11,101 nucleotides of DNA from Candidatus Enterousia sp. (GCA_045613785.1 JAZLBQ010000002.1:1-11101), one strand, 5' to 3'. Shown: positions 1-11,101, counted from the first letter of the stretch. Notes: a model not told the origin generated them from the sequence alone. Numbers and translations are program-made.

Positions 1-124
1 TGTTATGAAACTCACGCTGCTTCGGATACGGGTCGTAATATAAAAAACGCCGCCGCTCCTCGTCCCGAAGAGTCGCTAGTAAAGCACTTAAGTCTTGCTG
101 GCTAAACCCGTCTAGCTTCCTCAT
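1..124 (-). CDS. terL: Terminase large subunit, N-terminal 41 codons (runs off the left edge of the window)
   Basis: Manual translation from ATG at 124-122, which overlaps the upstream stop as ATGA: MRKLDGFSQQDLSALLATLRDEERRRFLYYDPYPKQREFHN. PYPKQREFH matches the adenine-binding Q-motif region that precedes Walker A in P22-gp2-like terminases (PYxKQREF). Not in the ORF track. Confidence 0.85.
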   Translation of the reverse strand, partial: MRKLDGFSQQDLSALLATLRDEERRRFLYYDPYPKQREFHN

Positions 125-729
125 AGGTCGTCCTCATGTATTGTGATTGGTTGAGGGGTTTGGATTGGTGTAGGGATAGAGATTGGTGTGGGTGTGGATG
201 GAGTAGAGGCGGGCGTGGATGCCGGAGTCGTTAATGCCGCTATCAGCTCCTTAATGCTCTCGTTGCTTAGGTGGCTTAGAGTCGCCTGTGTCTTACGATT
301 ACGAAGGCTGGTGCTTTTGGATGGATTGCTGTAATGTGCCTTTATCAGAGAATACTTCGATGTTGAGACTTTGTGCTCGTGAAGGTCGGTGGTACTTAAG
401 GACTCGTCTAAGTATTGCGATGATAACACCTCTTCTTCTACCTCAGTAAGCGTGTCTAGGAAACTGGAATCGCCATCACGCCGCCAAAAATAATATACAA
501 CACCCCATGGCGGTATGGACTGCGAGTATGTGTGGGGGAAGTATAGTGGTGGCTGATGGTTGGCACAACGCTTCGCATCCTCGTCAAACATCGTGTGAAG
601 GGGGAGACGGTGGGTGCTTATGAGGGATATATAAAAATCCATCAGCTCAGGTGTCTGTGGAGCCAGTAACGAATGGTCTCGATATAGTGAAAGACTGTCA
701 GCAGTCGGAATGGTCGGTGTCTTCTTCAT
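121..729 (-). CDS. terS: Probable terminase small subunit with a Pro/Thr/Ser-rich C-terminal tail; likely start is ATG 729, not TTG 765
   Basis: Directly upstream of terL and coupled to it by an ATGA overlap. The segment IPPWGVVYYFWRRDGDSSFLDTLTEVEEEVL loosely resembles the HTH-plus-helix core of Sf6-type TerS. The TTG at 765 coincides with the -35 hexamer, so the MKKTPT start at 729 is preferred. Confidence 0.65.
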   Translation of the reverse strand: MKKTPTIPTADSLSLYRDHSLLAPQTPELMDFYISLISTHRLPLHTMFDEDAKRCANHQPPLYFPHTYSQSIPPWGVVYYFWRRDGDSSFLDTLTEVEEEVLSSQYLDESLSTTDLHEHKVSTSKYSLIKAHYSNPSKSTSLRNRKTQATLSHLSNESIKELIAALTTPASTPASTPSTPTPISIPTPIQTPQPITIHEDDL

Positions 730-736
730 ACATAAA

Positions 737-765
737 ATAGTAATACCATCATCAGGACATGTCAA
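737..765 (-). promoter_or_regulatory. sigma70-type promoter for terS-terL
   Basis: Minus strand reads TTGACA (765-760), 17-nt spacer, TACTAT (742-737), with an A/T tract upstream. Only 7 nt separate the -10 from ATG 729. Confidence 0.75.
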
Positions 766-796
766 CCCTTTTTTAAAAACCCAGAGTGTTTGTCGA

Positions 797-869
797 GGGG
801 GGAGTTAGTGTGTGTGTGCCACCCCCCGTTTCCGGACCCGCCCCCCGTCAGCCCGTTGAAAAAAATTTC
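797..869. other. G/C-run element upstream of terS: candidate packaging site or genome terminus
   Basis: G6 (797-802), (TG)5, C6 (822-827), C3, C6 (841-846), C3, then AAAAAAATTT, between divergent promoters. Base composition and k-mer usage change here. Confidence 0.45.
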
Positions 870-897
870 TTGCTATCGTATTGGCATGTGGTACACT
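870..897 (+). promoter_or_regulatory. Early promoter P1 (extended -10)
   Basis: TTGCTA (870-875), 16 nt, TACACT (892-897) with TG at 889-890, and an A-tract upstream. Followed by hairpin CCAGTG-ACAA-CACTGG (909-924). Confidence 0.6.
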
Positions 898-955
898 ACG
901 ACCATAACCCAGTGACAACACTGGCACATTAACAGACTAACAAAGGACTACGACT

Positions 956-1255
956 ATGAGTAAAATTGACACTATGTCAGCAATCAGATTCAGAACAGGA
1001 CAACCATACCACAACACTAATACACAAGTGACAGTCAGCGACAATGGCGAATCACGACTATTCTTATGGGGCAACCTAATCGCATGGACAAGCGACAACC
1101 GCAGTAAATTACACGTCAATCAATGTGGTTGGGATACAACGACCACCAACAGCAGATTAAGAGCCTTGGGAGTGGACATCTGCCACAAGCGGACCAAGTT
1201 ATACATTAACGGACAGCCTGCGGACAGTGAAACAACTTATACAATGGCATACTAA
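956..1255 (+). CDS. Small early phage protein of unknown function (99 aa)
   Basis: AAAGGA RBS, upstream promoter and downstream terminator. The pattern L-x-GNLIA...GW-x-T-x-TT-x-SRL-x-AL resembles, from memory, a recurrent phage hypothetical family. Confidence 0.85.
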   Translation: MSKIDTMSAIRFRTGQPYHNTNTQVTVSDNGESRLFLWGNLIAWTSDNRSKLHVNQCGWDTTTTNSRLRALGVDICHKRTKLYINGQPADSETTYTMAY

Positions 1256-1524
1256 CCAGCGACAACGCATGCAGGGCGATTTTTGCCCTGCTTTTTTTAA
1301 CACTAACAAAGGACCTAACGACCATGAGCAAGCGACACACGTACATACAGCATACAACGCATGCGAGAGCCTGCACACGTCACACATGGACAGCGATAGC
1401 GACAGAGATACAACCGAGCCAGCGGACAGCGATACCAGCGACAGCCAAGCGATTAAATCAATGGACATATTACAGTGTGAGCGACAACGGCTTAACACTA
1501 CACACATGGCGACTACAACAGCGA
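1037..1524 (+). repeat. Cluster of 11 same-strand AGCGAY hexamers
   Basis: Copies start at 1037, 1091, 1258, 1331, 1392, 1398, 1428, 1437, 1448, 1480 and 1520. Plus-strand AGCGA seen elsewhere in the window is followed by a purine. Confidence 0.6.
1271..1298 (+). terminator. Intrinsic terminator after the first early gene
   Basis: GCAGGGCGA-TTT-TTGCCCTGC followed by T7. Confidence 0.85.
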
Positions 1525-1533
1525 TTTTATTAA
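1324..1533 (+). CDS. Small basic ORF (69 aa), possibly a decayed relative of the 956-1255 gene
   Basis: Carries the same leader/RBS repeat and shares VSDNG and short DNA blocks with gene 956. The sequence is low-complexity and lies just after a terminator with no clear promoter. Confidence 0.4.
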   Translation: MSKRHTYIQHTTHARACTRHTWTAIATEIQPSQRTAIPATAKRLNQWTYYSVSDNGLTLHTWRLQQRFY

Positions 1534-1539
1534 AAACCC

Positions 1540-1687
1540 AGTATTTTCAATGACTTATTACTAACTGACCCCGATACTAACAAATACGGGTACGCATTGC
1601 CGCACCAAAAATCAAGTAAATTCAATGACTTATCAAATATCAATTTTTTGTCAACATTGAAAAAATAAAGTAAAAACAATGAGTTAT
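1540..1687 (+). repeat. Three direct 19-bp repeats AGTAwwwwCAATGA(C/G)TTAT
   Basis: AGTATTTTCAATGACTTAT (1540-1558), AGTAAATTCAATGACTTAT (1615-1633), AGTAAAAACAATGAGTTAT (1669-1687); offsets are 75 and 54 bp. Confidence 0.85.
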
Positions 1688-1745
1688 TGCGGTTTTCAGA
1701 CCCCAAAAGTTGACAAAATCAAAAAAATGGCGGAAATCGGGCATT

Positions 1746-1908
1746 TGCGTAGACTTCCACATATAGATATATATACATATACATAATGAAAAGAAAATCA
1801 ATCACACATTTTTTAAATATATATATAGATACCCCCCAAGTCTATTTGGGGAAGTCTACGCAGTTGGCTGTTTTCTGGGAAAATATCTATATGGGTAAAT
1901 CTACGCAC
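1746..1908. other. Candidate replication-origin core: 13-bp inverted repeat flanking (AT)n tracts
   Basis: TGCGTAGACTTCC (1746-1758) and GGAAGTCTACGCA (1850-1862) are perfect reverse complements enclosing alternating-AT tracts (about 1761-1786 and 1810-1831). A third partial copy, AAATCTACGCA, is at 1897-1907. Confidence 0.55.
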
Positions 1909-1936
1909 TTGACATTTTAATAAAAAAATATATACT
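1909..1936 (+). promoter_or_regulatory. Early promoter P2
   Basis: TTGACA (1909-1914), 16 nt, TATACT (1931-1936). Followed by CATAACC, as at P1, and by hairpin ACCCT...AGGGT (1950-1970). Confidence 0.75.
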
Positions 1937-2000
1937 TTATGACATAACCACCCTTATAATATAACAGGGTACACAACACTAACATAAAGGACTAACGACT

Positions 2001-2285
2001 ATGCAATGGAAAACTACATTTTGGCAAGATTTTAGTATTGCCGATATATTTGGCATTAACGCAATCAGAGACACATACAATACATGCTATAACCAATACA
2101 AGGACAACACCGAATACGTCACAGAGTTGGTTATAGTATTGAATCACAAGATTTGGCAACACTACGAGAAAAACAATCATGCCGTTGCCAAGGTATATGA
2201 CGAGTTATGGCGAGAGTTGCACGACTATTGCTTGAACACATTAAAGGGCGATGACTTGCGTTATTACATACAAACAACAGATTAA
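2001..2285 (+). CDS. Small helical phage protein of unknown function (94 aa)
   Basis: Strong RBS and promoter. The pattern TTFWxDFSIADxFG...TELVxVLNHKIWQHYE...YxxTD resembles, from memory, a family common in gut phages. Confidence 0.9.
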   Translation: MQWKTTFWQDFSIADIFGINAIRDTYNTCYNQYKDNTEYVTELVIVLNHKIWQHYEKNNHAVAKVYDELWRELHDYCLNTLKGDDLRYYIQTTD

Positions 2286-2302
2286 CCAAAGGACAGTAAA
2301 CT

Positions 2303-2950
2303 ATGTATATTGCTTATGATTATGAGACAGGCGATATTATTGCACAAAGCCCCACGATAATGGGGCTTTCACAAAAAGTAAATATCAACAGAAAAACGAT
2401 TGCTACACACATATCAAAAAACACTAACAGAGAGTTATACCCGATGACATATATGGGTAAAATTTGCTTTATAAATGACAAGTGTACAGAAATCATGACT
2501 AAATTGCCCGATGACGAGTTTGAGCCAGAGATTTTTCACGTATATAAAGCCAGTACAGGCGAGTATATTTGTCCATGTACATTGCAGGCATTATGCGACA
2601 GACTTGATATAAGTGTGAAAGCAGGGGTTGCAAAGTCAGTTGATAACTATGTATTGACTAAATATAATATATTTTTATCACGCACACAGGCGGAAAGTTT
2701 GCCACCAAAGAAATCAGTATATGAGATATTTACTGATGACAATAATTTAGTGTTAAGTACGTTCCACCCAGATAATTATAAGTACTGGAAACCAGTAAAT
2801 ATGACGTTCTACCCGAATCCATATAAACCAAATCATTATATGGTAAAATTGCCTTATGATTTTGATAATTTGCCACCAAAGCACAGGTTGCCAGTGATTG
2901 ACTATTTAGAACGACCAGAAAATATTTTACTTGACAGTGATGATGACTGA
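2303..2950 (+). CDS. NUMOD1/IENR1-like repeat DNA-binding protein with no visible nuclease domain
   Basis: The N-terminus YIAYDYETGDIIAQSPTIMGLSQKVNINRKTI and the internal FHVYKASTGEYICPCTLQALCDRLDIS fit the NUMOD1 beta-hairpin plus HTH pattern. AAAGGAC RBS. Confidence 0.65.
   Translation: MYIAYDYETGDIIAQSPTIMGLSQKVNINRKTIATHISKNTNRELYPMTYMGKICFINDKCTEIMTKLPDDEFEPEIFHVYKASTGEYICPCTLQALCDRLDISVKAGVAKSVDNYVLTKYNIFLSRTQAESLPPKKSVYEIFTDDNNLVLSTFHPDNYKYWKPVNMTFYPNPYKPNHYMVKLPYDFDNLPPKHRLPVIDYLERPENILLDSDDD
2346..2369 (+). other. Perfect 9-bp hairpin inside the 5' end of the CDS; possible weak terminator or processing site
   Basis: AAAGCCCCA-CGATAA-TGGGGCTTT. Confidence 0.4.
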
Positions 2951-2959
2951 TAGTATTAT
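2931..2959 (+). promoter_or_regulatory. Early promoter P3 for the MoxR-VWA operon
   Basis: TTGACA (2931-2936), 17 nt, TATTAT (2954-2959). Followed by hairpin CCTGCC-AACA-GGCAGG (2971-2986). Confidence 0.75.
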
Positions 2960-3015
2960 ACCACCAAGCCCCTGCCAACAGGCAGGAAATTAAACAAAAC
3001 ATGAAAGGACTTTAC

Positions 3016-3828
3016 ATGACTAACAAAGAGTTGTACAAAAAGTACATTAAAAACAATATTCCATTACTTTTAATAGGTAAATCGGGTACAGGTAAATCAG
3101 AAATTATTAAATCTATTGCAAGCGAGTTAAATATGCCAGTGGTTGACTTGCGTATGTCACAGTTGCCACCAGAGGACTTAAATGGTTTGCCAGCCCCGAC
3201 AGAGGACAAAAAAGCATTTACATATCTGTTGCCAGAGTGGTTTTATAAATTCCAGCCAGACACACCATTTGTGTTGTTTTTAGATGAAATCAACCAAGCC
3301 ACACCAAATACAATTAACGCATTGTATGCGTTGGTACATGATAAAATGTTGGCAGGGCGAGTAAACCCAAATATGCGAGTAGTTGCCGCAGGCAATTTGA
3401 TAGATGAATCAGACTACTTAAATGAATTGCCAAAACCATTGCTGAATCGTTTTGTGGTAAAAGCACACGAGGCAAAGGCAAAAGAGGTTATAGATTATTT
3501 GTCAGAAAAATACAAAGACAATGAAAAAGCACAACGAATCTTGAAAGCGGTACAGAAATTAGATTGGTTGGAAAACATGAACCCACGAGCATTAGAACGT
3601 TGTATAAAAATCTTGACTGTACATAAAATCAAGGACAAAGATGAGATATTGTGCCAAGCAAACGGCAATGAGGGTTTGGCAAGTATTATTATAGACAGTT
3701 TGTCAGACAAAGAGCCAGAAACATGCGATGAAACCTCAACAGAGGAATTGATTAACGCAGTGAAAAATGGCAAAGCGGTTGAAATGATAACAGAGGAAAT
3801 AAAGGAGTTATTAAATGACAAAAACTAA
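3016..3828 (+). CDS. MoxR-family AAA+ ATPase
   Basis: Walker A GKSGTGKS, DLRMSQ..PEDLNGLP, Walker B LFLDEIN, sensor I AAGN, arginine finger LLNRF. Start moved to ATG 3016, which follows AAAGGAC at 3004-3010. Confidence 0.9.
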   Translation: MTNKELYKKYIKNNIPLLLIGKSGTGKSEIIKSIASELNMPVVDLRMSQLPPEDLNGLPAPTEDKKAFTYLLPEWFYKFQPDTPFVLFLDEINQATPNTINALYALVHDKMLAGRVNPNMRVVAAGNLIDESDYLNELPKPLLNRFVVKAHEAKAKEVIDYLSEKYKDNEKAQRILKAVQKLDWLENMNPRALERCIKILTVHKIKDKDEILCQANGNEGLASIIIDSLSDKEPETCDETSTEELINAVKNGKAVEMITEEIKELLNDKN

Positions 3829-4336
3829 TAAATGGTATGTTATCAAAGTTGATGACAGATATGTACACGATATTACACTAGACATTGAAAACACCCGATT
3901 TGAAATTGAGGGTACAGCCGACAAAGATGATATTAAACACGCAAGGTTGTTTGATTCCGAGGGCAGAAAAATAAAACTGTTAGGACTAGGGTTAATATCT
4001 GATAAAAATACGACAATACAGTCTTTTTCTGTTGACGTTCGCACTGAAATTGTGGACAAGTCTGATGACTATGTATTCCAGTGTGAAACCAAAGGCGGAA
4101 AAAAGATATATTTTAGCAGATTCCACAAAGAACATGGTATTGGCATGACTAAACCAGAGTTAGAACAAGACATTGCGTTGGCACAAGCCATGGTCTGCGA
4201 TGAAACACAAATAATAGCATTGCAGAATCTGTTTGCCGACATGGAAAGCAAGGACATATTAAATGATGACTTGCAAGGGGCAACATGGACAGCAATACCA
4301 GTAAAAAAGACTTTTGAAAACATAAAAGAAATATAA
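3815..4336 (+). CDS. Hypothetical protein (173 aa) between the AAA and VWA genes
   Basis: AAAGGAG RBS at 3801-3807; start overlaps the end of the AAA gene; no recognised motif. Confidence 0.85.
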   Translation: MTKTNKWYVIKVDDRYVHDITLDIENTRFEIEGTADKDDIKHARLFDSEGRKIKLLGLGLISDKNTTIQSFSVDVRTEIVDKSDDYVFQCETKGGKKIYFSRFHKEHGIGMTKPELEQDIALAQAMVCDETQIIALQNLFADMESKDILNDDLQGATWTAIPVKKTFENIKEI

Positions 4337-4342
4337 AAATCA

Positions 4343-4362
4343 GTGGGGTGGAAACACCCCAC
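4343..4362 (+). other. Intergenic GAAA-tetraloop hairpin (mRNA stability or processing element)
   Basis: GTGGGGTG-GAAA-CACCCCAC, with no U-tract on the plus strand. Confidence 0.6.
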
Positions 4363-4383
4363 AAGCACATGAAAGGACTAACA

Positions 4384-5688
4384 ATGACTAGAAAAAATTA
4401 TGGTATTATGGGGTACACAAAAAATCACAAAAACCCCAGCACAAACAGCAGTGTAAAATATCTTGCAGATTTATTTGATATAAAAGACAATACTAAAATT
4501 GAACAGATTTTAGAAAAAGAGTTTAATATCAGAGACAATTATGAAAAAGAAATGGTTGCAGAAACTGTAAAATCGGTTTTTTTGGAAAAACAGTTAGAAA
4601 AACACAATCGGGCTAGATTATGCCCCGAGGTAAATTTAACACCATACACAGATAATACAATCAGAGGTATTATAAAAACATATTTTCAAGAGCGAGACAG
4701 GGTTAGTGAAAATCGCAAAAACTATGAAAACAAAACAGCAGATGAACAAATAAAAGCAAGCAATGAATATTGGGGTTTTCATGACAAAAACAGTCAAGCA
4801 AGAGAAAAATACAGAAAAGTATTAAAACAGAGCAAAAAACGGCAACAGCAACAGCAATCATCAGCCAATAAGAATCAACAGCCTGCGTTGACACAAGCAG
4901 ACTTGAATAAAATGGTTGCTGAATCAAAGCAATCATTGCCAGATGACATGCAATTCCTTGAATCATATTTAGATGATGACTATACAAAACATGCAGTAAA
5001 AGAAATTGAATCGCACGCAGGTCGTGAAATATTCCCTATGCAAGGTCAAGGGAGGCACGAAACAATGGCAAAATTAAAGACTGATAAACAAGGCAAATAT
5101 GAATCTATTGGTTTGCACAAAGCATTGACAAAGATTTTAGATGACATATTAGGTCAGACAGAAATTCGGTCAGTAGAGCGAGGGTATAACAGACCAAGCC
5201 GATTTAGTCACTTTGTTAAAGGTTGTTTTTTGCCAGTGTACAAATCAAATAAACCACGCAAACGACCTGCGTTTTTCATTGATTCGTCAGGCAGTATGAG
5301 CATACGCAGGGGGCATTTTAATTGCATAACGTCTGCGATTGGGGCATTTTTGCGAGTACACCACAGACGAATCAGCGAATTGAGACCAAAGTATTATTCT
5401 TTCACTGGTGGTTTTGACGTAAAAGAAATTGACATTAAAAATCAGTTGCCTGTTGCATGCGGTGGAACAAGCACAAGATTTTTGTGCAATGTAAATAACA
5501 AAGAAAAGTCAATAATCATAACAGACGCAGAATTTGAAAACTATGAATTGGCAGAATTAAGACTGTGGGCAACGAATCACAGGACAGCCGATATTCATTG
5601 GATTACAAATAACAAAAGACATGCAGAGAGATTGAAAGGGGCATTAACAGGGTTTGGAAATCAAAAAGTGCATTATGCAGAATTTTAA
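4384..5688 (+). CDS. VWA (MIDAS) domain protein, probable partner of the MoxR ATPase
   Basis: C-terminal FFIDSSGSM (DxSxS), GGT and IIITDA, preceded by YNRPSR....LP, as in DUF2201-type VWA proteins. Central poly-Q linker. Start moved to ATG 4384, after AAAGGAC at 4372-4378. Confidence 0.88.
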   Translation: MTRKNYGIMGYTKNHKNPSTNSSVKYLADLFDIKDNTKIEQILEKEFNIRDNYEKEMVAETVKSVFLEKQLEKHNRARLCPEVNLTPYTDNTIRGIIKTYFQERDRVSENRKNYENKTADEQIKASNEYWGFHDKNSQAREKYRKVLKQSKKRQQQQQSSANKNQQPALTQADLNKMVAESKQSLPDDMQFLESYLDDDYTKHAVKEIESHAGREIFPMQGQGRHETMAKLKTDKQGKYESIGLHKALTKILDDILGQTEIRSVERGYNRPSRFSHFVKGCFLPVYKSNKPRKRPAFFIDSSGSMSIRRGHFNCITSAIGAFLRVHHRRISELRPKYYSFTGGFDVKEIDIKNQLPVACGGTSTRFLCNVNNKEKSIIITDAEFENYELAELRLWATNHRTADIHWITNNKRHAERLKGALTGFGNQKVHYAEF

Positions 5689-5705
5689 CAAAAGAGGTAA
5701 AAAAA

Positions 5706-5894
5706 ATGAATAGAATTTTATTTAATTTAGGCTGGTGGTTGGGTAGTCAAGTACGTTGCATTTGTTTTGTGCTTGTTATACTGATAATAAACTTATTTAA
5801 CCCATTGGCAACCATAAAAGCATTGGTTGACATTGGCAAATCGTCAGAAAAAGTATTAGAAACATTAAAAAAAAGAGGTAAAAACAATGACTAA
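5706..5894 (+). CDS. Small predicted membrane protein (62 aa)
   Basis: AGAGGT RBS; hydrophobic stretch CICFVLVILIINLF; basic C-terminus. Confidence 0.75.
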   Translation: MNRILFNLGWWLGSQVRCICFVLVILIINLFNPLATIKALVDIGKSSEKVLETLKKRGKNND

Positions 5895-6150
5895 AACAAA
5901 AGCACAGATTCAATCTGAATTAGATGACATGGCAAAACTTGCCATGTCTTATAAAAACATTGCACTAGATTGTTTGAAAAAAGAATCAACGCATGATGAA
6001 ATTTTGGGTATGTTGTGGTATATCGTTGCCTTGATTTTGTCACATGGTCACAGTTTTGTGGGGCATGCGTGTAGTGTAATAGCACTTGTAATCAGCATAC
6101 ATTATGCGATACAATCATGGAAAACATATAAGAAAAAAAGACAATTATGA
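5887..6150 (+). CDS. Small protein with two predicted transmembrane helices (87 aa)
   Basis: ILGMLWYIVALIL and ACSVIALVISIHYAI followed by a KKKR tail. Leader AAAAGAGGTAAAAA is shared with the previous gene. Confidence 0.8.
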   Translation: MTKTKAQIQSELDDMAKLAMSYKNIALDCLKKESTHDEILGMLWYIVALILSHGHSFVGHACSVIALVISIHYAIQSWKTYKKKRQL

Positions 6151-6416
6151 TAGAAATATATGATAGTGCAAACGATTATATTGCCAGTGTTGAATCTTAT
6201 GTGCAAGCCAGCAGATTAACAGGCGAGCAAGCCAGCACAGTACGCAATCGGTTAAACAACCCGATTGAGGGCAGATATAATTATTACACAAAGGACAATC
6301 GTGGTTATTTACTGCGGTTGTCTTTTACATTATACACACTAGCAAGGCAGACAGAATACCCGACACCACAGCAAATTGAAATCATCGGCAAAGCAGTAAG
6401 GGAATTATTAAAATGA
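6147..6416 (+). CDS. Single NUMOD1-like HTH DNA-binding protein (89 aa)
   Basis: MIEIYDSANDYIASVESYVQASRLTGEQASTVRNRL fits the NUMOD1/IENR1 pattern. ATGA coupling on both sides. Confidence 0.7.
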   Translation: MIEIYDSANDYIASVESYVQASRLTGEQASTVRNRLNNPIEGRYNYYTKDNRGYLLRLSFTLYTLARQTEYPTPQQIEIIGKAVRELLK

Positions 6417-6841
6417 CAGACACAAAATTTTTATTAGAAAAAAATGTCCGCAATAACATTATTTTATTGTCGGCAAAGAGCGGTATTACACTTTTTAACA
6501 ACCCAGTAGGCACAGCATGGGCAGGAAAGTATAACCCCAGCACACACAGTGTAATTGCCCCACGAGCGGTTAAATATGGGCTTGCAGTAGGGTCATCAGA
6601 TTTGATTGGTATAACACCTGTAAAAATAACGCAAGATATGGTCGGCAAAACCATTGGCGTTTTTACTGGCGTTGAGGTAAAATTAGATAAAAATGGCAAG
6701 TACAAAGAAACAGCGGAACAGAAAAAGTTTGGAAAATTTATTGAAAAAAATGGCGGTTTTTATATACTTGCAGACAGTTATGGCGATATATTAAATTTTT
6801 TTAATTCCAAAGCCTTGACATTTGGAATCGCAGCATTATAA
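6413..6841 (+). CDS. VRR-NUC domain nuclease (phage Holliday-junction/flap endonuclease type)
   Basis: E...NIIL, LFNNPVG, GLAVGSSDLIG, GVEVK and EQKKF...GG motifs of the PD-(D/E)xK VRR-NUC family. Confidence 0.88.
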   Translation: MTDTKFLLEKNVRNNIILLSAKSGITLFNNPVGTAWAGKYNPSTHSVIAPRAVKYGLAVGSSDLIGITPVKITQDMVGKTIGVFTGVEVKLDKNGKYKETAEQKKFGKFIEKNGGFYILADSYGDILNFFNSKALTFGIAAL

Positions 6842-6842
6842 T
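6804..6842 (+). promoter_or_regulatory. Promoter P4 with an operator-like inverted repeat around the -35
   Basis: TTGACA (6815-6820), 16 nt, TATAAT (6837-6842). ATTCCAAA (6804-6811) and TTTGGAAT (6821-6828) form a perfect 8-bp inverted repeat. Confidence 0.75.
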
Positions 6843-6878
6843 TATAATAAAGAAATAACGAAAAGAAGGATTTTTGTA

Positions 6879-7784
6879 ATGGTAGTCATAAACCCTTTCA
6901 AAAGTGCTAGTAGCATGAAGGCGAAAACCCCGATTATTGTTAGTCTGGTCGGGGAATCGTCTTGCGGTAAAACCTATTCCGCATTAAGACTTGCAACAGG
7001 CTTAACAAATAACCCAAAAGAAATTTTTTTAATTGATACTGAAAATCGTGGGGCTATGTACGCAGATATTTTTGGCGATTATCAAGTCGCTAACGTTTCC
7101 GAGTACGCAGTAGCGGTTGGCAGACCCACGCACAGACCACAGAATTACATTGAATTGATTGACATTGCTAAAAAAAATGGGGCAAAAGTGTTAATCATTG
7201 ATTCGTTGTCTGACCCATGGGCTGGCGATGGCGGTTGCGTTTCATGGGCAGCGGCATTAAAAGAAAAATACGAAAGCACACACAATGGCAGACAGGCTGG
7301 AATATCGGTATGGGCATTGCCAAAAGCCTCGTATTCCGAAATGATGAATAAAATATGTAATTCATCAATGAATATTATTTTTACTTTCCGCACCAAAGAA
7401 ATAGTTGATGTTCAAAAAAACGAATACGGTAAAGCGGTGGTTAAGGAAGAAAAGAAAATTGAAATTGTACGTGAATCGGGCAATAAATATAACATTACTT
7501 GGGAATTACACCTTGACGGCACCACAAAAAAGATTGCGAAAATCGGCAAGACGTTTGACGGTGGCGATTGGATATTCAAAAGTGGCGAATTGCTTACAGA
7601 AGAACACGCAAAACGCATGTTAGAGTGGCAAAACGCAACAAAAGAATCGGTTATAAGTGCTGGCAGACAGGCGAAAGACCGAAAGGCTTGGTTTGAATCA
7701 TTAAACCCTGCCGAAAAACGGTTAGCAACACAATTTGCTGACGAAATCAAACAAGAACAAACAATAACAGAAGAGAATTTATAA
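6879..7784 (+). CDS. sak4: Sak4-like / AAA_24 RecA-fold ATPase (ssDNA-annealing recombinase)
   Basis: Walker A GESSCGKTYSAL, LIDTENRG, Walker B LIIDSLS..W...GG. Lies next to an SSB-like gene and an exonuclease. Start moved to ATG 6879, after AAGGA. Confidence 0.8.
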   Translation: MVVINPFKSASSMKAKTPIIVSLVGESSCGKTYSALRLATGLTNNPKEIFLIDTENRGAMYADIFGDYQVANVSEYAVAVGRPTHRPQNYIELIDIAKKNGAKVLIIDSLSDPWAGDGGCVSWAAALKEKYESTHNGRQAGISVWALPKASYSEMMNKICNSSMNIIFTFRTKEIVDVQKNEYGKAVVKEEKKIEIVRESGNKYNITWELHLDGTTKKIAKIGKTFDGGDWIFKSGELLTEEHAKRMLEWQNATKESVISAGRQAKDRKAWFESLNPAEKRLATQFADEIKQEQTITEENL

Positions 7785-8125
7785 TGGACGAAAAGAAAAC
7801 ACCAATTATAAAAATTCGTGGCGATGGCGGTTTTTCTGTGGCGGTATTTGCTGACATGAAAAAACGCAGTGACGAAACCGAATATGTTAGTTATTCAGCA
7901 GTGTTGCAAAAATCATGGAAAGATAAGAACGACCAGTGGCAACAACAGTCTGTATCAATGTTTGATAATAACTTGCCAAACGTGGCATTGTTATTGCAAA
8001 AAGTAGCGAGTGCAATTATGGACTTGCGAAACAACACACAACCGCCTGCAACACAACAGCAACCAGCGGTTGAAAAAACTAACGCACAAGCAATCGATGA
8101 ATTATCAGATTCTGTGCCATTTTAA
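7784..8125 (+). CDS. ssb: Probable single-stranded DNA-binding protein
   Basis: Beta-rich core with KSWKDKNDQWQ, a Q/P-rich linker and an acidic tail ending DELSDSVPF. Directly follows the Sak4-like gene. Confidence 0.7.
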   Translation: MDEKKTPIIKIRGDGGFSVAVFADMKKRSDETEYVSYSAVLQKSWKDKNDQWQQQSVSMFDNNLPNVALLLQKVASAIMDLRNNTQPPATQQQPAVEKTNAQAIDELSDSVPF

Positions 8126-8143
8126 GAACAAAAGGAACTAAAA

Positions 8144-8680
8144 ATGTCAAAAAACATACACGAAATTACTATAACAGCAGAAGAAAAAGTTAAAGAATAT
8201 GACTGTGGAAAGTGTGTCGGGTACGATTGCCATACAACATACAAAGGCAAAAGCAAAGACGGCATCACACCACCGATGGCAACGGCACTGATTGGCGATT
8301 TATTGGCGATTCAAGATTTGGAACCAGAAGATATTGACGAAATCTTGACTCTTATAATGAAAAAAATCTTGCCAAACGCAACATGTTTGTCAACAAAAGG
8401 CAAATCATTAGATGAATCAATGGAAGAATCTATTGAAATCCATAAGAAAAAGGGTAAAAAGTCTGCGAAAGATACGTTTATGGAACTTATGGAAGATGAA
8501 CGTTGGCGTGATTTGTTGTTTGATAGAACAGCCTTGAAACAAGACAAATTAGGCAAGAAAATATGTGCATGGATGGTCACTGCATTGAAAGACATTGAAG
8601 ATTTGGGCGGTAAAGTACAGAAGAAAAATTTGGAAAAAGTACTGTTCGAAGATGTCTTGGTAGAAGAAGATGACGAATAA
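8144..8680 (+). CDS. Hypothetical charged protein (178 aa)
   Basis: AAAGGAA RBS; acidic C-terminus; no recognised domain. Confidence 0.85.
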   Translation: MSKNIHEITITAEEKVKEYDCGKCVGYDCHTTYKGKSKDGITPPMATALIGDLLAIQDLEPEDIDEILTLIMKKILPNATCLSTKGKSLDESMEESIEIHKKKGKKSAKDTFMELMEDERWRDLLFDRTALKQDKLGKKICAWMVTALKDIEDLGGKVQKKNLEKVLFEDVLVEEDDE

Positions 8681-8692
8681 TAAGGTTATACA

Positions 8693-8830
8693 ATGACACG
8701 AAATCAGATAAGGAAAAGAATCGCAGAGATTGAACAGTTTATATTAGTAAACCCAGAACAAGCAAAAATACTTGGGTTTAATGAACTGTTAAAACAGTTG
8801 CGAAAAGACCTTGAAGATTGTAAAAGATGA
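8693..8830 (+). CDS. Small helical-hairpin protein (45 aa), not in the ORF track
   Basis: TAAGG RBS, then MTRNQIRKRIAEIEQFILVNPEQAKILGFNELLKQLRKDLEDCKR*. Fills the gap in the operon and has an amphipathic pattern. Confidence 0.7.
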   Translation: MTRNQIRKRIAEIEQFILVNPEQAKILGFNELLKQLRKDLEDCKR

Positions 8831-8839
8831 GTGTATAAT
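8811..8839 (+). promoter_or_regulatory. Promoter P5 driving the structured RNA
   Basis: TTGAAG (8811-8816), 17 nt, TATAAT (8834-8839). Expected start is about 8845-8847. Confidence 0.75.
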
Positions 8840-8845
8840 CAAACA

Positions 8846-9119
8846 GTTTGGTGGAATCTCTATGGGCCTTCTTTCTCTCCATTCCTTCCGTCCTTTAAGA
8901 TTCCACCACCAAGTTCGGGCATGTGACCTCCTTTAAAGGGCTAAGTAGTGTATATTGGCTCTCAGAAAACTGTGTTATGCTGGTTTTGTTATTTCCAGTC
9001 AAAACATGTCGTCACGCATACAGCCCAGCTACCGTATCACGCTAGTCAAAAGCATGTAATAACACAGAAATATACACCATGTGGGGAACAAGACCTCAAG
9101 TTGTTGCCCCACATTTTTT
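8846..9119 (+). ncRNA. Unrecognised structured RNA (sRNA or regulatory leader) with anti-SD motifs
   Basis: ~300-nt gap with no credible ORF in an otherwise tightly packed operon. Has its own promoter and terminator. Stems: 8849-8859/8898-8908 (11 bp, perfect), 8948-8956/9069-9077, 8970-8978/9059-9067. CU-rich loops. Confidence 0.7.
9079..9119 (+). terminator. Intrinsic terminator closing the structured RNA, just upstream of the exonuclease RBS
   Basis: ATGTGGGGAACAA-GACCTCAAG-TTGTT(G)CCCCACAT followed by a T-run. Confidence 0.8.
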
Positions 9120-9139
9120 AAAACGAAAGGAACTAAGAC

Positions 9140-9985
9140 ATGAACTTATACAGAAATATATCAATCGCTGATTATCACAGCGAAAAAACAATCCCATCTC
9201 GCTCAGCATTAGTACAGGCATTGAAATCGCCTGCACACTTAAACATGTACCTAAACGGCACACACAAAGTCAACGACAGTATGAAGTTAGGCACTTTTAT
9301 TCATGACTTCATTGAAAATGGCATTAAAATATCGGCAGATTGGACAACAAAACAAGAATTATATCAACGTGCCACAAACGGCAGACCAGCAGGCAGCCCA
9401 AAACTTGATGACGAGGGCAACCCGCTTTTTTCTTATGTAAATACAGTCGATGAAAGTCTTGCACTTACACCTGCAAAGTCTGTACTAGCGGTGTCGATGA
9501 TGAAAGCTATTGAAAACGACATGTTTATTGTGTCGGCTATGGACTTAGATGACTTGGTTATTGAACCGACATTTGTTGGGGAAATCAACGGCATGAAAGT
9601 AAAAGCAAGACCAGACTTGGCGTTTACAAACAACGATTCATTGATTGAAATTAAAACAACCTCATCGCTAGACCCAGCCGACATTGGTCGTGAATTTTTT
9701 GAATACGGTTATGACATGCAGGCGTATTTAGAACTAGAACTTAGCGGTGCAGATAGGGTTTATTTTTATTTTGTATCATCAGAAACACCGTCAGGCACAG
9801 CAAGATTTTGTGTCGACAGGGAATCACAGTGGTACAAATTGGGTAAATTTAGAACTGAAAAAGCATTAGAATTGTATTATAAACACAAAGATTCGGTTGC
9901 CGAATCTTATACGCAAGCGGATATTGAGGTGCCGTTGTGCTACAAAGCTGCGAATTACATGGCTGAGAACGGCATAGAGGCTTAA
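9140..9985 (+). CDS. RecE/exodeoxyribonuclease VIII-like PD-(D/E)xK exonuclease (DUF3799 type)
   Basis: YH...SRSAL...KSPAH, MKLGTFIH, IEPTF, KARPD, IEIKT and YGYDMQA motifs; AAAGGAA RBS. Confidence 0.88.
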   Translation: MNLYRNISIADYHSEKTIPSRSALVQALKSPAHLNMYLNGTHKVNDSMKLGTFIHDFIENGIKISADWTTKQELYQRATNGRPAGSPKLDDEGNPLFSYVNTVDESLALTPAKSVLAVSMMKAIENDMFIVSAMDLDDLVIEPTFVGEINGMKVKARPDLAFTNNDSLIEIKTTSSLDPADIGREFFEYGYDMQAYLELELSGADRVYFYFVSSETPSGTARFCVDRESQWYKLGKFRTEKALELYYKHKDSVAESYTQADIEVPLCYKAANYMAENGIEA

Positions 9986-9986
9986 A

Positions 9987-11101
9987 ATGTATGTCTTGCG
10001 TGATTATCAAGAAAAAGCAGTAAAAGACACAAGACAAAGTTTCTGCGATGGTTATTCTGCCCCTTGTTTGGTATTATCCACAGGGGCAGGAAAGACTGTT
10101 TGTGCAGGACAGATTGTCCATGACGCATTTCATAAAGGAAAGCGTGTTGTTTTTGTCGTACACCGCCAAGAATTAGCAAAACAAACAGCAAAAACATTCC
10201 GAGGTTATGGTATTGAACCAGCGTTTATTATGGCGAACGTCAAGCCCGATACAGACAATCCGGTACAGATTGCCACAATAGGCACGTTGCGTAATCGTCT
10301 TGATAAATACCAAGAACCAGACCTTATTATTTATGATGAAAGCCAACACTGCATGGCGAACCAATGGCTTACCATCAAAAAAACATGGAACAAAGCAAAA
10401 ATAATTGGTTTAACAGCAACGCCATGTCGATTAGACGGCAAGCCACTACGTGAATTTTTTGATAAACTTGTTATAGGTCCATCTACCGCAGATTTAATAA
10501 AGGCTGGTGCATTAACGCCATACGATTATTATGCACCGAGTGTTATTGATACAACAGGCATGAAGCATAACAAGACAGATTTTACTGCCGATGCCCTTTC
10601 TTTTTTTTCACAGAAAAGGGAAATAATTGGCGACAATATAAAACAATATCAGCAACTGGCGAATGGCAAACGAAATATTGTGTTTGCCTGCAATGTAAAA
10701 CACAGTATGGAAATCGTCAAACGCTACCAAGATGCGGGAATACCCGCTGCACACCTCGATGGTGAAACCCCTGCCGCTGAACGTGAGGATATTCTTTCAC
10801 GTTTTGCAACCGGTGAAATAAAAGTTTTATCAAACGTAGAACTTTTTGGCGAAGGGTTTGACCTGCCTGCTATTGAGGTTGTGTCCTTGCTACGTCCGAC
10901 CTTATCGACCTCACTGTATCTACAACAGGTCGGACGGGCATTAAGACCTTGCCCAGAATTAGGCAAAGAACGTGCGATAATATTAGACCATGTCGGCAAT
11001 TATGAACGGCATGGCATGCCGGACGATGAACGAGAATGGTCGTTAAAAGGCGGTCTTGTTAAAAAAACGTCATCAAGACAAACAGAATCAACAGTAAGGG
11101 T
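9987..11101 (+). CDS. Superfamily 2 DExD/H helicase (RadD/YejH/IRC3-like), truncated by the window end
   Basis: Manual translation from ATG 9987: MYVLRDYQ..., LSTGAGKT, VHRQELAKQ, IYDESQH, GLTATP.RLDG, EGFDLP, LRPTLS.SLYLQQVGRALR, ILDHVGN..RHG.PD. Not in the ORF track. Confidence 0.95.
   Translation, partial: MYVLRDYQEKAVKDTRQSFCDGYSAPCLVLSTGAGKTVCAGQIVHDAFHKGKRVVFVVHRQELAKQTAKTFRGYGIEPAFIMANVKPDTDNPVQIATIGTLRNRLDKYQEPDLIIYDESQHCMANQWLTIKKTWNKAKIIGLTATPCRLDGKPLREFFDKLVIGPSTADLIKAGALTPYDYYAPSVIDTTGMKHNKTDFTADALSFFSQKREIIGDNIKQYQQLANGKRNIVFACNVKHSMEIVKRYQDAGIPAAHLDGETPAAEREDILSRFATGEIKVLSNVELFGEGFDLPAIEVVSLLRPTLSTSLYLQQVGRALRPCPELGKERAIILDHVGNYERHGMPDDEREWSLKGGLVKKTSSRQTESTVR

Follow-up and report, generated by a model that had tools for sequence, protein, structure and literature searches.

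How viruses of prokaryotes avoid the recognition sites of R-M systems is reportedly the subject of one study (PMC6286503). Where PMC10644984 deals with the phages T5 and BF23, restriction is attributed only to sites in the ~8% of the genome that enters first, other sites being tolerated, and the leading segment is described as bordered by a repeat-rich non-coding region. The sections of PMC12455610 on Murciavirus and Mme2I report experiments in which sensitivity was set only by motifs in the first-injected region. Further sections of this source argue that the segment injected first is where selection concentrates, that earlier site-avoidance analyses ignored site location and that headful packaging would undo a leading-region model. 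An early anti-restriction function is proposed there to protect the remainder of the genome in Autographiviridae, and in conjugative plasmids the first-entering DNA is described as poor in R-M targets and as encoding anti-defence genes (PMC12455610).

The window, i.e. the whole stretch of 11,101 nucleotides analysed here, is from an uncultured gut phage. It represents about one quarter of a genome of ~46 kb which assembles as a circle; the word map spans these 11.1 kb, with ~35 kb lying outside. The original prediction had proposed that restriction-like words are purged from position 728 onwards, and on recount every position it gave was exact. Of GAAG/CTTC there are 13 copies in 1-727; up to 6865 the only further ones are at 1754 and 1851, and another 21 copies follow up to 11101. 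TCGA is located at 357, 679 and 793 and next at 8094, AGCT at 114, 245 and 644 and next at 9027, CCGG at 222 and 832 and next at 10260. GATC is missing from the entire window. So are GCGC and CGCG, and GGCC has a single, non-coding copy at 8865. The scarcity of the latter three words and a depletion of GGAT/ATCC had been overlooked. Both exceptions in the GAAG/CTTC-free zone (728..6864), 1754 and 1851, are in the arms of inverted repeats, and GGAT/ATCC is present in the zone only three times. TCGA (after 793), AGCT, CCGG (after 832), GATC, GGCC, GCGC and CGCG are lacking there as well. The word-free runs of GAAG(A), TCGA, AGCT, CCGG and GATGG all begin at 644-832, which is the junction between terminase and early genes. 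The purged block comprises 6.1 kb or ~13% of the ~46 kb.

Among 136 four-letter words GAAG/CTTC showed the strongest depletion in 728-6864, with 2 copies observed versus 45.8 expected from base composition and 20.1 from a Markov model. GGAT/ATCC ranked second (3 observed versus 39.8 and 20.1, respectively). The depletion of GAAG/CTTC withstood a codon-preserving null, for which the 11 early genes were shuffled synonymously 1000 times: GAAG was observed 0 times versus 15.3 ± 2.6 expected, CTTC 0 times versus 4.5. In the same shuffles 11.7 TCGA, 6.4 AGCT, 4.3 CCGG and 5.8 GATC were expected and none observed; for GGAT the figures were 2 versus 12.2 and for ATCC 1 versus 10.2. Counts as low as those observed were reached in 0.3% of the shuffles for CTTC and GATC, in 0.8% for CCGG and in none for the other words listed. 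Control words had observed/expected ratios near 1.0-1.2 in the same genes, and ACGT, CATG, TGCA, GTAC, CTAG and the AT-only palindromes were at expectation. These data support a word-specific depletion. CGAAA, to our knowledge not a familiar restriction target, was present once in the early genes versus 10.3 expected, and 18 times elsewhere versus 10.9. The z-scores of the shuffles were over-dispersed (SD about 2.2; 2.15), and by a uniform-null scan statistic, which scores compositional islands highly in control loci too, the window ranked only 5th of 119 loci. Therefore, we put weight on the zero counts, on the codon context and on the comparison with other phages. The observed depletion is confirmed as real.

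The purge is achieved by synonymous codon choice. As predicted, Glu in front of a G-initial codon is written GAG 12 times and never GAA in the early genes, whereas in other contexts of these genes GAA is used 72 and GAG 24 times (Fisher 4.5e-7). Ahead of G-initial codons in the next six genes, Glu is GAA in 13 and GAG in 5 cases. Because both strands are depleted, selection operates at the level of DNA, not RNA. None of the four GAAGN and none of the four NGAAG is used in the early genes, which indicated that the avoided word is GAAG itself and not just GAAGA or CCTTC. MboII and HpyAV had been named as specificities; since every GAAGN is avoided, this was unwarranted.

Taken together, nine words (GAAG, TCGA, GGAT, GATC, AGCT, CCGG, GGCC, GCGC and CGCG) had observed/expected values of 3/89 for the 11 early genes, 39/103 for the six genes that follow and 28/25.8 for those on the terminase side. 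For single genes, the ratio ranged from 0.00 to 0.15 among the early ones and from 0.18 to 0.67 among the following six, and it was 1.10 (23/20.9) for the gene at the small-terminase position. The purge had been described as sharp and graded. It looks step-like; the grading is weak, because the ratios per gene form a step. The trend within the last six genes was not significant (Spearman p 0.27), and the staggered return of words had a p of 0.023 for the five words present there and of 0.0035 for the three words which had been picked by hand. We conclude that the early block is under continuing purifying selection against nine short double-strand DNA words. The recombination and replication genes are under such selection only in part, and the terminase-side genes, a few hundred bases off, escape it. 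It is well supported that selection against these words depends on position.

On the terminase side, 2..124 (minus strand) codes for the N-terminal 41 codons of the large terminase and runs off the contig end. The fragment alone had a weak tblastn match to terminase (E 0.05). Its product is 90% identical to the N-terminus of a 503-aa ORF in L094, a diverged syntenic relative, and this ORF matches Terminase_6N/6C and phrog_2. The gene at the small-terminase (terS) position, 121..726 (minus strand), is 84% identical to L094 1649-2236; its product has no Pfam or PHROG match. It is rich in the words purged next door, and GC in 1-727 is 0.49. Between the divergent gene sets is a conserved non-coding block, 759..868, which is nearly identical in the L094 alignment, whereas the flanking early proteins are only 35-50% identical. 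It holds the last TCGA (793) and CCGG (832) ahead of the long free runs and two direct 11-nt repeats (819-829 and 838-848). It is a candidate for a packaging site, a genome end or a regulatory element. At the contig level, the terminase/early junction was bridged in four of four runs. The 46-kb contig of one run (X1) ends at ~1827/1870 of the window, not at ~800. Its own ends thus fall inside an AT-rich repeat region, 1532..1907, with three 27-nt iterons (1532-1687) and inverted repeats at 1733-1767, 1841-1875 and 1883-1907, located ~0.7-1.1 kb from the junction.

The early genes are on the plus strand. The first one, 956..1255, is Kyano_Gp96-like (PF23790, 1e-12; phrog_554); a terminator scan placed a terminator-like hairpin behind it, at 1271-1291. 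1324..1533 encodes a small basic protein of 69 aa (pI 10.6) which is 51% identical to L094 2952-3155. A promoter-like site with 11/12 matches (1909..1936, plus strand) is located 5' of an operon of nine early genes, 2001..6841. This contains a MoxR-like AAA ATPase (3001-3828; AAA_5 4.7e-12, phrog_1297 1e-38), a 434-aa protein (4384-5688) and a phrog_93-like protein (6413-6841), the rest being without assigned function. With bpMoxR the ATPase scored 26 bits (E 5.5e-6), just below the 27-bit cut-off. The 434-aa protein carries the motif D-x-SGSMS, which we take to be MIDAS-like and which is all it has in common with its partner in the unrelated phage L128 (E 0.01); it had no Pfam match to a von Willebrand A (VWA) domain. 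One or more genes of the zone were predicted to neutralise host restriction, but known anti-restriction families were not found by Pfam or PHROG, even at E<=1. Nor was there a strongly acidic DNA-mimic candidate in the zone; the lowest pI of an early protein was 5.0. The Pfam/PHROG scan of the window ORFs also gave an endonuclease-like match.

The right edge of the GAAG-free zone is at a perfect sigma-70 consensus promoter (6815..6842, plus strand; TTGACA, 16-nt spacer, TATAAT), and the first GAAG past the zone (6865) is just 5' of the ATG of the next gene (6879). This far edge has the promoter only, without a repeat-rich region. Six recombination and replication genes follow on the plus strand (6865..11101), namely a Sak4-like AAA_24 (6879-7784), a PDDEXK exonuclease (9140-9985), a ResIII helicase (9987 onwards) and three without assigned function. 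In this part GAAG and TCGA are near expectation and GGAT, AGCT and CCGG are still low; GATC, GCGC and CGCG remain absent, with GGCC limited to the copy at 8865. Observed/expected CpG is 0.73 in 2001-6864 and 1.06 in 6865-11101.

L094 has an early-only purge, too, with a partly different word list. It contains GAAG/CTTC 29 times in 1-2381 and twice in 2382-7054. Observed versus expected counts in its early genes were 1 versus 10 for GAAG, 0 versus 6 for TCGA, 0 versus 8 for GATC, 2 versus 22 for GATG, 0 versus 13 for TGAG and 0 versus 9.8 for GTAC, while GAAG, TCGA, GATG and TGAG were at expectation in its TerL/terS genes. Two words, GAAG and TCGA, are early-only in both phages. That the lists of relatives differ in part is as host-specific targets would behave. 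The protein identities between window and L094 are 84-90% for the terminase genes and 35-73% for the early genes. Where a residue is conserved, the two phages share its codon in 55% of cases for the ATPase gene and in 46% for the terS-position gene. Both modules have diverged to about the same extent at synonymous sites; therefore, lack of time cannot explain the un-purged terminase genes. As the purge was kept in both phages despite heavy synonymous divergence, it has been maintained over a long shared history. In L094 the iteron core is kept; the repeat arms which bear GAAG are not. L128 shares the layout and has a block of 10.5 kb with neither CCGG nor GATC (6801-17178; CCGG 0 versus 24-25 expected, GATC 0). 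Both runs start beside TerL and their edges coincide within 25 and 70 nt, one coincident edge falling inside a gene. C21, a further phage from the same bin and with a similar layout, has the reverse pattern, i.e. GATC, CCGG and GGCC cluster at the junction.

The phage is assigned to its host solely by binning, and a search of 60 relatives of this host did not find it. The search for host R-M systems covered five methylase families and gave only about two candidates. A HhaI-like methylase (E 5e-59) adjoins a gene with an NgoFVII-type (restriction-type) domain; the other finds were one 658-aa N6-methylase frame and one CcrM-type orphan. The HhaI-like enzyme fits the avoidance of GCGC, for which the ratio in the host, as assigned by binning, is 0.15 and the phage has 0 sites. 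None of the five families yielded a candidate for GAAG, TCGA or GGAT. The proposal that the purged words list the R-M specificities of the host is only weakly backed. CGCG, GCGC, GATC, GGCC and AGCT are avoided by host and phage alike. GTAC and CATG, the words most avoided by the host, are not purged in the phage, and GAAG is not avoided in the host (ratio 1.06).

The best fit to these data is a T5/T7-like order of entry, in which a slow or staged entry may be involved. We estimate a probability of roughly 0.55 that the early block is leading DNA, exposed to restriction-type nucleases of the host before phage protection acts. The purged words would be the targets of such nucleases, the early block would enter the cell first and an early-expressed protective function would then shield the rest of the genome. 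Purging 13% of a genome would be useful only if the rest is protected otherwise, as in the accounts of T5/BF23 and Murciavirus in the relevant parts of PMC10644984 and PMC12455610. Words purged window-wide (GATC, GCGC, CGCG, GGCC) may be targets which the phage cannot neutralise; the early-only words (GAAG, TCGA) may be targets neutralised once early genes are expressed.

It is unlikely, though conceivable, that the blocks come from lineages under different host R-M repertoires and were recombined, so that the map reflects ancestry and not entry order. The zone edges at a gene junction and at a promoter/gene boundary would suit this, as would the different GC and CpG of the blocks, the far higher conservation of the terminase than of the early genes with respect to L094 and the site-rich junction patch of C21, which looks like an insert. 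A recombination joint would likewise suit the edges which coincide in L128, one of which is intragenic. Yet the early-only purge of GAAG and TCGA was kept in the window and in L094 under about equally heavy synonymous divergence, and L128, though unrelated, repeats both layout and purge. Moreover, late sites for an active host enzyme would be lethal unless shielded, and this leads back to position-dependent protection. We consider it improbable that the words are sites of a phage function on double-stranded DNA which must spare the early block, e.g. a nickase or nuclease, methylase marks disturbing early promoters or sites to which a regulator binds. Such a function would explain that GAAG, without avoidance or a candidate enzyme in the binned host, is early-only in both relatives together with TCGA, that the zone's two GAAG/CTTC are both in inverted-repeat arms and that CGAAA is strongly depleted early. 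However, most purged words are classic 4-bp palindromes which the host avoids, the lists vary among the relatives and L128 (CCGG, GATC) as with changing host enzymes, and conservation in L094 does not extend to the repeat arms carrying GAAG. It is hardly credible that the pattern is an artefact of the statistics or of the composition of an A-rich, AT-rich coding block: against the over-dispersed z-scores and the scan rank of 5/119 stand zero counts versus 15-20 expected under three nulls, a codon-context p of 4.5e-7, control words at expectation in the same genes and the replication in L094.

How does an early block which probably enters first compare with known systems? The leading region found in conjugative plasmids offers an analogy only, as these are a different element which enters by single-strand transfer. 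Genome-wide avoidance is resembled in that the 11.1 kb contain no GATC, GCGC or CGCG and a single GGCC, and the host avoids the same palindromes; it differs in that GAAG and TCGA are avoided in the early block only and GGAT, AGCT and CCGG have three levels across the blocks. Of a MoxR + VWA system, the AAA_5/MoxR ATPase domain is present and a recognisable VWA partner was not found. In Murciavirus a single Type I motif was defined experimentally, whereas here many short Type II-like words were read from sequence. A T7-like leading region is approached in that selection is concentrated on the presumed first-injected segment; unlike in T7, the window has no Ocr family match and no phage RNA polymerase, and early and terminase genes are divergent, not collinear, at the junction. 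Differences from the first-step-transfer (FST) region of T5 are a genome of ~46 kb versus 122 kb, terminase genes diverging from early genes and, in searches of all window ORFs with PHROGs and Pfam, no homologues of T5 pre-early genes. The repeat-rich region (1532-1907) is inside the zone and not at its far edge. A long terminal repeat and two-step transfer are features of T5; the present genome is represented by contigs only. The likeness to the FST of T5/BF23 is an early block devoid of words which are plentiful in the neighbouring terminase genes, a contrast seen in L094 as well, and the sharp coincident edges in L128 resemble those of a discrete transfer unit.

Restriction-type words are under position-dependent selection at the level of DNA in this phage, and this selection is strongest in the early block beside the terminase junction. 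On recount, each word position of the original prediction was exact. When all 136 strand-symmetric 4-mers were ranked without hand-picking, GAAG/CTTC was the most depleted between 728 and 6864 (2 observed, where base composition predicts 45.8 and a Markov model 20.1). The second, GGAT/ATCC, had been overlooked. Codon-aware expectations were derived from 1000 synonymous permutations inside each of the 11 early genes (956-6841), and the depletion survived this codon-preserving shuffle. GAAG, CTTC, TCGA, AGCT, CCGG and GATC were entirely absent from the early genes, the expected counts being 15.3±2.6, 4.5, 11.7, 6.4, 4.3 and 5.8, respectively; GGAT was found twice (expected 12.2) and ATCC once (expected 10.2). 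The six genes to the right of the early block had GAAG and TCGA at 17 vs 21 and 8 vs 10.7 expected, and GATC, AGCT and GGAT at 0 vs 8, 2 vs 10.7 and 4 vs 11.4 expected. The predicted switch in glutamate codons was borne out as well: before a G-initial codon the early genes used GAG in 12/12 cases, elsewhere GAA in 72/96 (Fisher 4.5e-7). In the genes to the right, GAA preceded G-initial codons in 13/18 cases.

Both strands were depleted. Therefore, the constraint acts on DNA, and an RNA-level explanation was rejected. All four GAAGN and all four NGAAG pentamers were missing, i.e. the avoided word is the 4-mer GAAG itself, and the proposed assignment to MboII and HpyAV sites was too narrow. Because ACGT, CATG, TGCA, GTAC, CTAG and the AT-only palindromes occurred at expectation, the effect is word-specific and general palindrome avoidance was rejected. 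For the nine purged words taken together (GAAG, GGAT, TCGA, GATC, AGCT, CCGG, GGCC, GCGC and CGCG) the early genes had 3 occurrences against 89 expected, the next six genes 39 against 103 and the terminase-side genes 28 against 25.8. Some further words varied along the window. GAAC/GTTC, GCTA/TAGC and ACGG/CCGT were likewise early-depleted; coding-strand CGAAA was found once in the early genes (956-6841; expected 10.3) and 18 times in the next genes (6865-9200; expected 10.9). The CpG observed/expected ratio was 0.73 in 2001-6864 and 1.06 in 6865-11101.

The statistics call for restraint. A z-score of -6 overstates significance because the synonymous-shuffle z-scores of the early genes are over-dispersed (SD 2.15). 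With a scan statistic for the longest word-free run GAAG/CTTC was first among 132 words (Bonferroni 2e-6), followed by TCGA (0.012), CCGG (0.06) and AGCT (0.2). Across 119 loci, host chunks included, the window ranked only fifth since compositional islands score too, and after this control the scan statistic was rejected as stand-alone proof. In view of the over-dispersion and the 119-locus control the weight lies with the zero counts, with the codon-context test and with the other phages compared. Gene by gene, no early gene exceeded a nine-word ratio of 0.15 (range 0.00-0.15 over all 11), the six that follow lay between 0.18 and 0.67, and the gene at the small-terminase (terS) position reached 1.10. 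A graded purge had been predicted. Its position dependence held up; the gradation was weak, with no significant trend inside the last six genes. The shape of the pattern is one step, or two steps. The left edges of the word-free runs all coincide (644-832), and the right GAAG edge adjoins a perfect sigma-70 consensus promoter (6815-6842).

The window is the complete contig C2 (11,101 b) of an assembly of 26 contigs, 1.04 Mb and 96.5% completeness. It was compared with Logan contigs from four runs of four studies of animal-gut metagenomes. One contig of 46,396 b, from run X1, holds the entire window and is self-closing, with 34,629 letters from window position 11101 round to 1. Thus, the phage genome has about 46 kb and a circular map, of which the window is about one quarter. 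Contigs bridged the terminase/early-gene junction in all four runs. The other contigs of the bin were rejected as the remainder of the phage: the small ones belong to different phages, and C2 has no DNA in common with other bin contigs, just generic ATPase similarity. A different siphovirus, which has a complete terminase itself, accounts for C16, C17 and the small fragments. Its pieces (C16, C17, C6, C9, C11, C13 and C23) come from two or three strain variants, and fragments of portal, terminase, Erf and exonuclease genes are present in duplicate. GGCC is absent from these pieces and CCGG nearly so, GAAG is frequent (12-19 per kb), and they encode DNA methylases of their own.

Two genes at the left are on the minus strand, the first 41 codons of the large terminase (2-124) and the 201-codon gene in terS position (121-726), the latter without a family match. 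The terminase call is based on the relative L094, whose 503-aa ORF is 90% identical over the 41 residues and matches Terminase_6N/6C and phrog_2. As a guide to the packaging type, TerL relatives were compared; the best named matches were 32-37% identical, and their records begin at arbitrary points. Every gene rightwards of 956 is on the plus strand. After a Kyano_Gp96-like gene beginning at 956 come a terminator-like hairpin, a small ORF for a basic protein, 470 nt of AT-rich DNA and a nine-gene operon including a MoxR-like AAA ATPase and its 434-aa partner. The stretch from 6879 onwards encodes a Sak4-like ATPase, three proteins of unknown function, a PDDEXK exonuclease and a ResIII helicase. 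The AT-rich non-coding DNA at 1532-1907, possibly an origin or operator, contains 27-nt iterons in three copies together with a set of three inverted repeats; the iteron core is conserved in L094, and the 46-kb contig has its own ends at about 1827/1870. Between 860 and 1540 the DNA has an unusual excess of A+C and little T (AT skew up to 0.35, GC 0.47-0.48), and short direct repeats with a common AGCGACA-type core are numerous. The alignment with the X1 and X4 contigs breaks at about 941-949, where these relatives have some 207 extra letters directly upstream of the first early gene. A non-coding gap of 310 nt (8831-9139) contains the only GGCC of the window, two of the three CTTC beyond 6865 and, by eye, a long inverted repeat (about 8851-8910); the gap had no Rfam match, and the Rfam search of the whole window gave nothing at E<=0.1. 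The window has no tRNA genes. The phage collection contained no Megablast match to the window, and single-protein searches of viral, genome and metagenome contigs confirmed no related locus. Pfam and PHROG scans of the window ORFs recognised no anti-restriction family; the protein atlas returned just a sub-threshold NUMOD1-like lead (score 0.85) for the 215-aa protein.

A syntenic relative, L094, was found by a metagenome scan that used an alignment of ATPase homologues. This contig of 7,054 b has the gene order of the window; identities are 90% for TerL, 84% for the terS-position gene and 35-73% for the early genes. Distant ATPase-bearing loci were rejected as syntenic relatives, synteny being seen in L094 alone. 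There, 29 GAAG/CTTC lie in 1-2381 and 2 in 2382-7054; the terminase part contains every one of the five TCGA, and GATC is absent. Against codon-aware expectations the early genes had GATG/CATC 2 vs 22.1, TGAG/CTCA 0 vs 13.1, GAAG/CTTC 1 vs 9.8, TCGA 0 vs 6.0, GATC 0 vs 8.1 and GTAC 0 vs 9.8. In the TerL and terS genes the same words stood at 25 vs 17.8, 23 vs 18.7, 23 vs 19.6, 5 vs 5.8, 0 vs 2.5 and 2 vs 7.4. GCGC (53), CGCG (44), GGCC, CCGG, AGCT and GGAT were plentiful. Thus, the contrast between early and terminase genes is conserved and the word list is just partly in common, as would be expected if host enzymes change. At about 759-868 both phages have a nearly identical non-coding block, although the adjoining early genes have diverged; this block may be a site of packaging or a genome end or, alternatively, serve regulation.

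The comparison with L094 bears on the main rival explanation, module history, according to which the contrast would reflect the separate pasts of the two modules. The early genes are indeed the more diverged at the protein level. At conserved residues, however, codon identity is 55% in the ATPase gene and 46% in the terS-position gene. With synonymous divergence this heavy and similar in both modules, a lack of time for purging the terminase genes is implausible, and so is a frozen relic in the early genes. We consider module history unlikely; the position-dependent selection has persisted through long divergence. Behind it comes a phage-internal function of the avoided words, which would also act on both strands of DNA; with word lists that differ in part between the two relatives we regard it as quite improbable. 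A statistical or compositional artefact is most improbable of all, with the zero counts, the codon-context test and the contrast present in L094.

The control scan brought up a second, unrelated lineage, L128 (Ga0272448_1000623, range 13715-34110 reversed), with a GC content of 55-60% and only a 32%-identical ATPase in common with the window. Its layout is alike: after minus-strand TerL (4778-6391) and the junction, a block of plus-strand genes includes the MoxR-like ATPase, and a helicase lies beyond this block. Here, a block of 10.5 kb (6777-17248) has no CCGG against 24-25 expected and 52-54 outside, and 6801-17178 has no GATC against 48-49 outside. The edges of both zones coincide within 25 and 70 nt. 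The signature, as read from these contigs, thus recurs in at least two lineages. No regional purge was seen in the distant ATPase-bearing loci L112 and L113. Another phage of the bin with a similar layout, C21 (40,594 b), is a counter-example: GATC, CCGG and GGCC are concentrated at its junction. The patch at about 19-25 kb, with TerL/HNH genes and the terminase/early junction, holds 7/7 GATC, 14/27 CCGG and 11/14 GGCC. C21 has one AGCT and one CGCG in 40.6 kb, and two TCGA in the first 22 kb and 15 thereafter.

The link between phage and host rests on binning; in a search of 60 host relatives for the Sak4-like protein the phage was present in the binned assembly (G000) itself only. The seven most under-represented host 4-mers, by Markov ratio, were GTAC (0.12), CGCG (0.13), GCGC (0.15), GATC (0.24), GGCC (0.51), CATG (0.51) and AGCT (0.55). 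Five of them are on the purge list of the phage; GTAC and CATG are not purged there. In the large host contigs two 6-mers are avoided as well, GTCGAC (8 against 90 expected) and ATTAAT (32 against 246 expected). A search for five methylase families located CcrM-type and M.HhaI-like genes (G000:C1:46593-47264 and G000:C7:140716-141663). The M.HhaI-like C5 methylase (E 5e-59) adjoins a gene with a C-terminal NgoFVII-type restriction domain. One strong N6-methylase match was obtained, in a 658-aa frame. The CcrM-type methylase has a RAMA domain (E 6e-124 to CcrMI), and we take it to be an orphan cell-cycle methylase. The five-family search yielded no Dam-type match and no candidate for GAAG, TCGA or GGAT; the predicted methylase set fits GCGC.

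In the original prediction the purged DNA enters first and the rest is protected. The observation was confirmed and extended, and the interpretation was supported in part. We consider it the best explanation, with a probability of roughly 55%. Purging 13% of a genome helps only if sites elsewhere are shielded. Possibly, though this is rather a long shot, these phages form a previously unrecognised class in which a discrete segment, 6-10 kb long, leads and enters or acts ahead of the remaining genome. In such a class the terminase genes would diverge from an early operon with the MoxR-like ATPase and a MIDAS-motif partner, and sequence alone would reveal the leading segment, as a zone with sharp bounds that lacks host-specific restriction words. 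The ATPase pair would then help to complete DNA entry or broadly shield DNA that enters later. To our knowledge, a factor with such a broad shielding action is still unidentified even in T5.

If first entry is the correct reading, the principle operates in uncultured gut phages of different architecture, and its signature is strong enough for detection by sequence alone. Genome ends, injection polarity and candidate anti-restriction operons could then be inferred from metagenomic contigs, and genome-wide avoidance statistics, which are blind to site position, would be corrected. The partly different word lists of the two relatives would be a natural record of changing host defences. Should the leading-segment class be real, word-free zones would also give the set of neutralisable defences for uncultured phages.

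The concept itself is already known; here it is met in uncultured phages of different architecture. Restriction-driven selection limited to first-entering DNA has been demonstrated experimentally in T5-like phages (PMC10644984) and, since 2025, in T7-like phages (PMC12455610). In T5 and BF23, Type I and II systems are described as acting only via sites in the first-step-transfer region (PMC10644984). In Murciavirus (Autographiviridae), sensitivity is ascribed only to motifs in the first-injected region; the authors argue that selection is concentrated there and that headful packagers fall outside the principle (PMC12455610). The principle in T5/BF23 and Murciavirus is identical to that proposed for the present phage, where it is derived from sequence alone.
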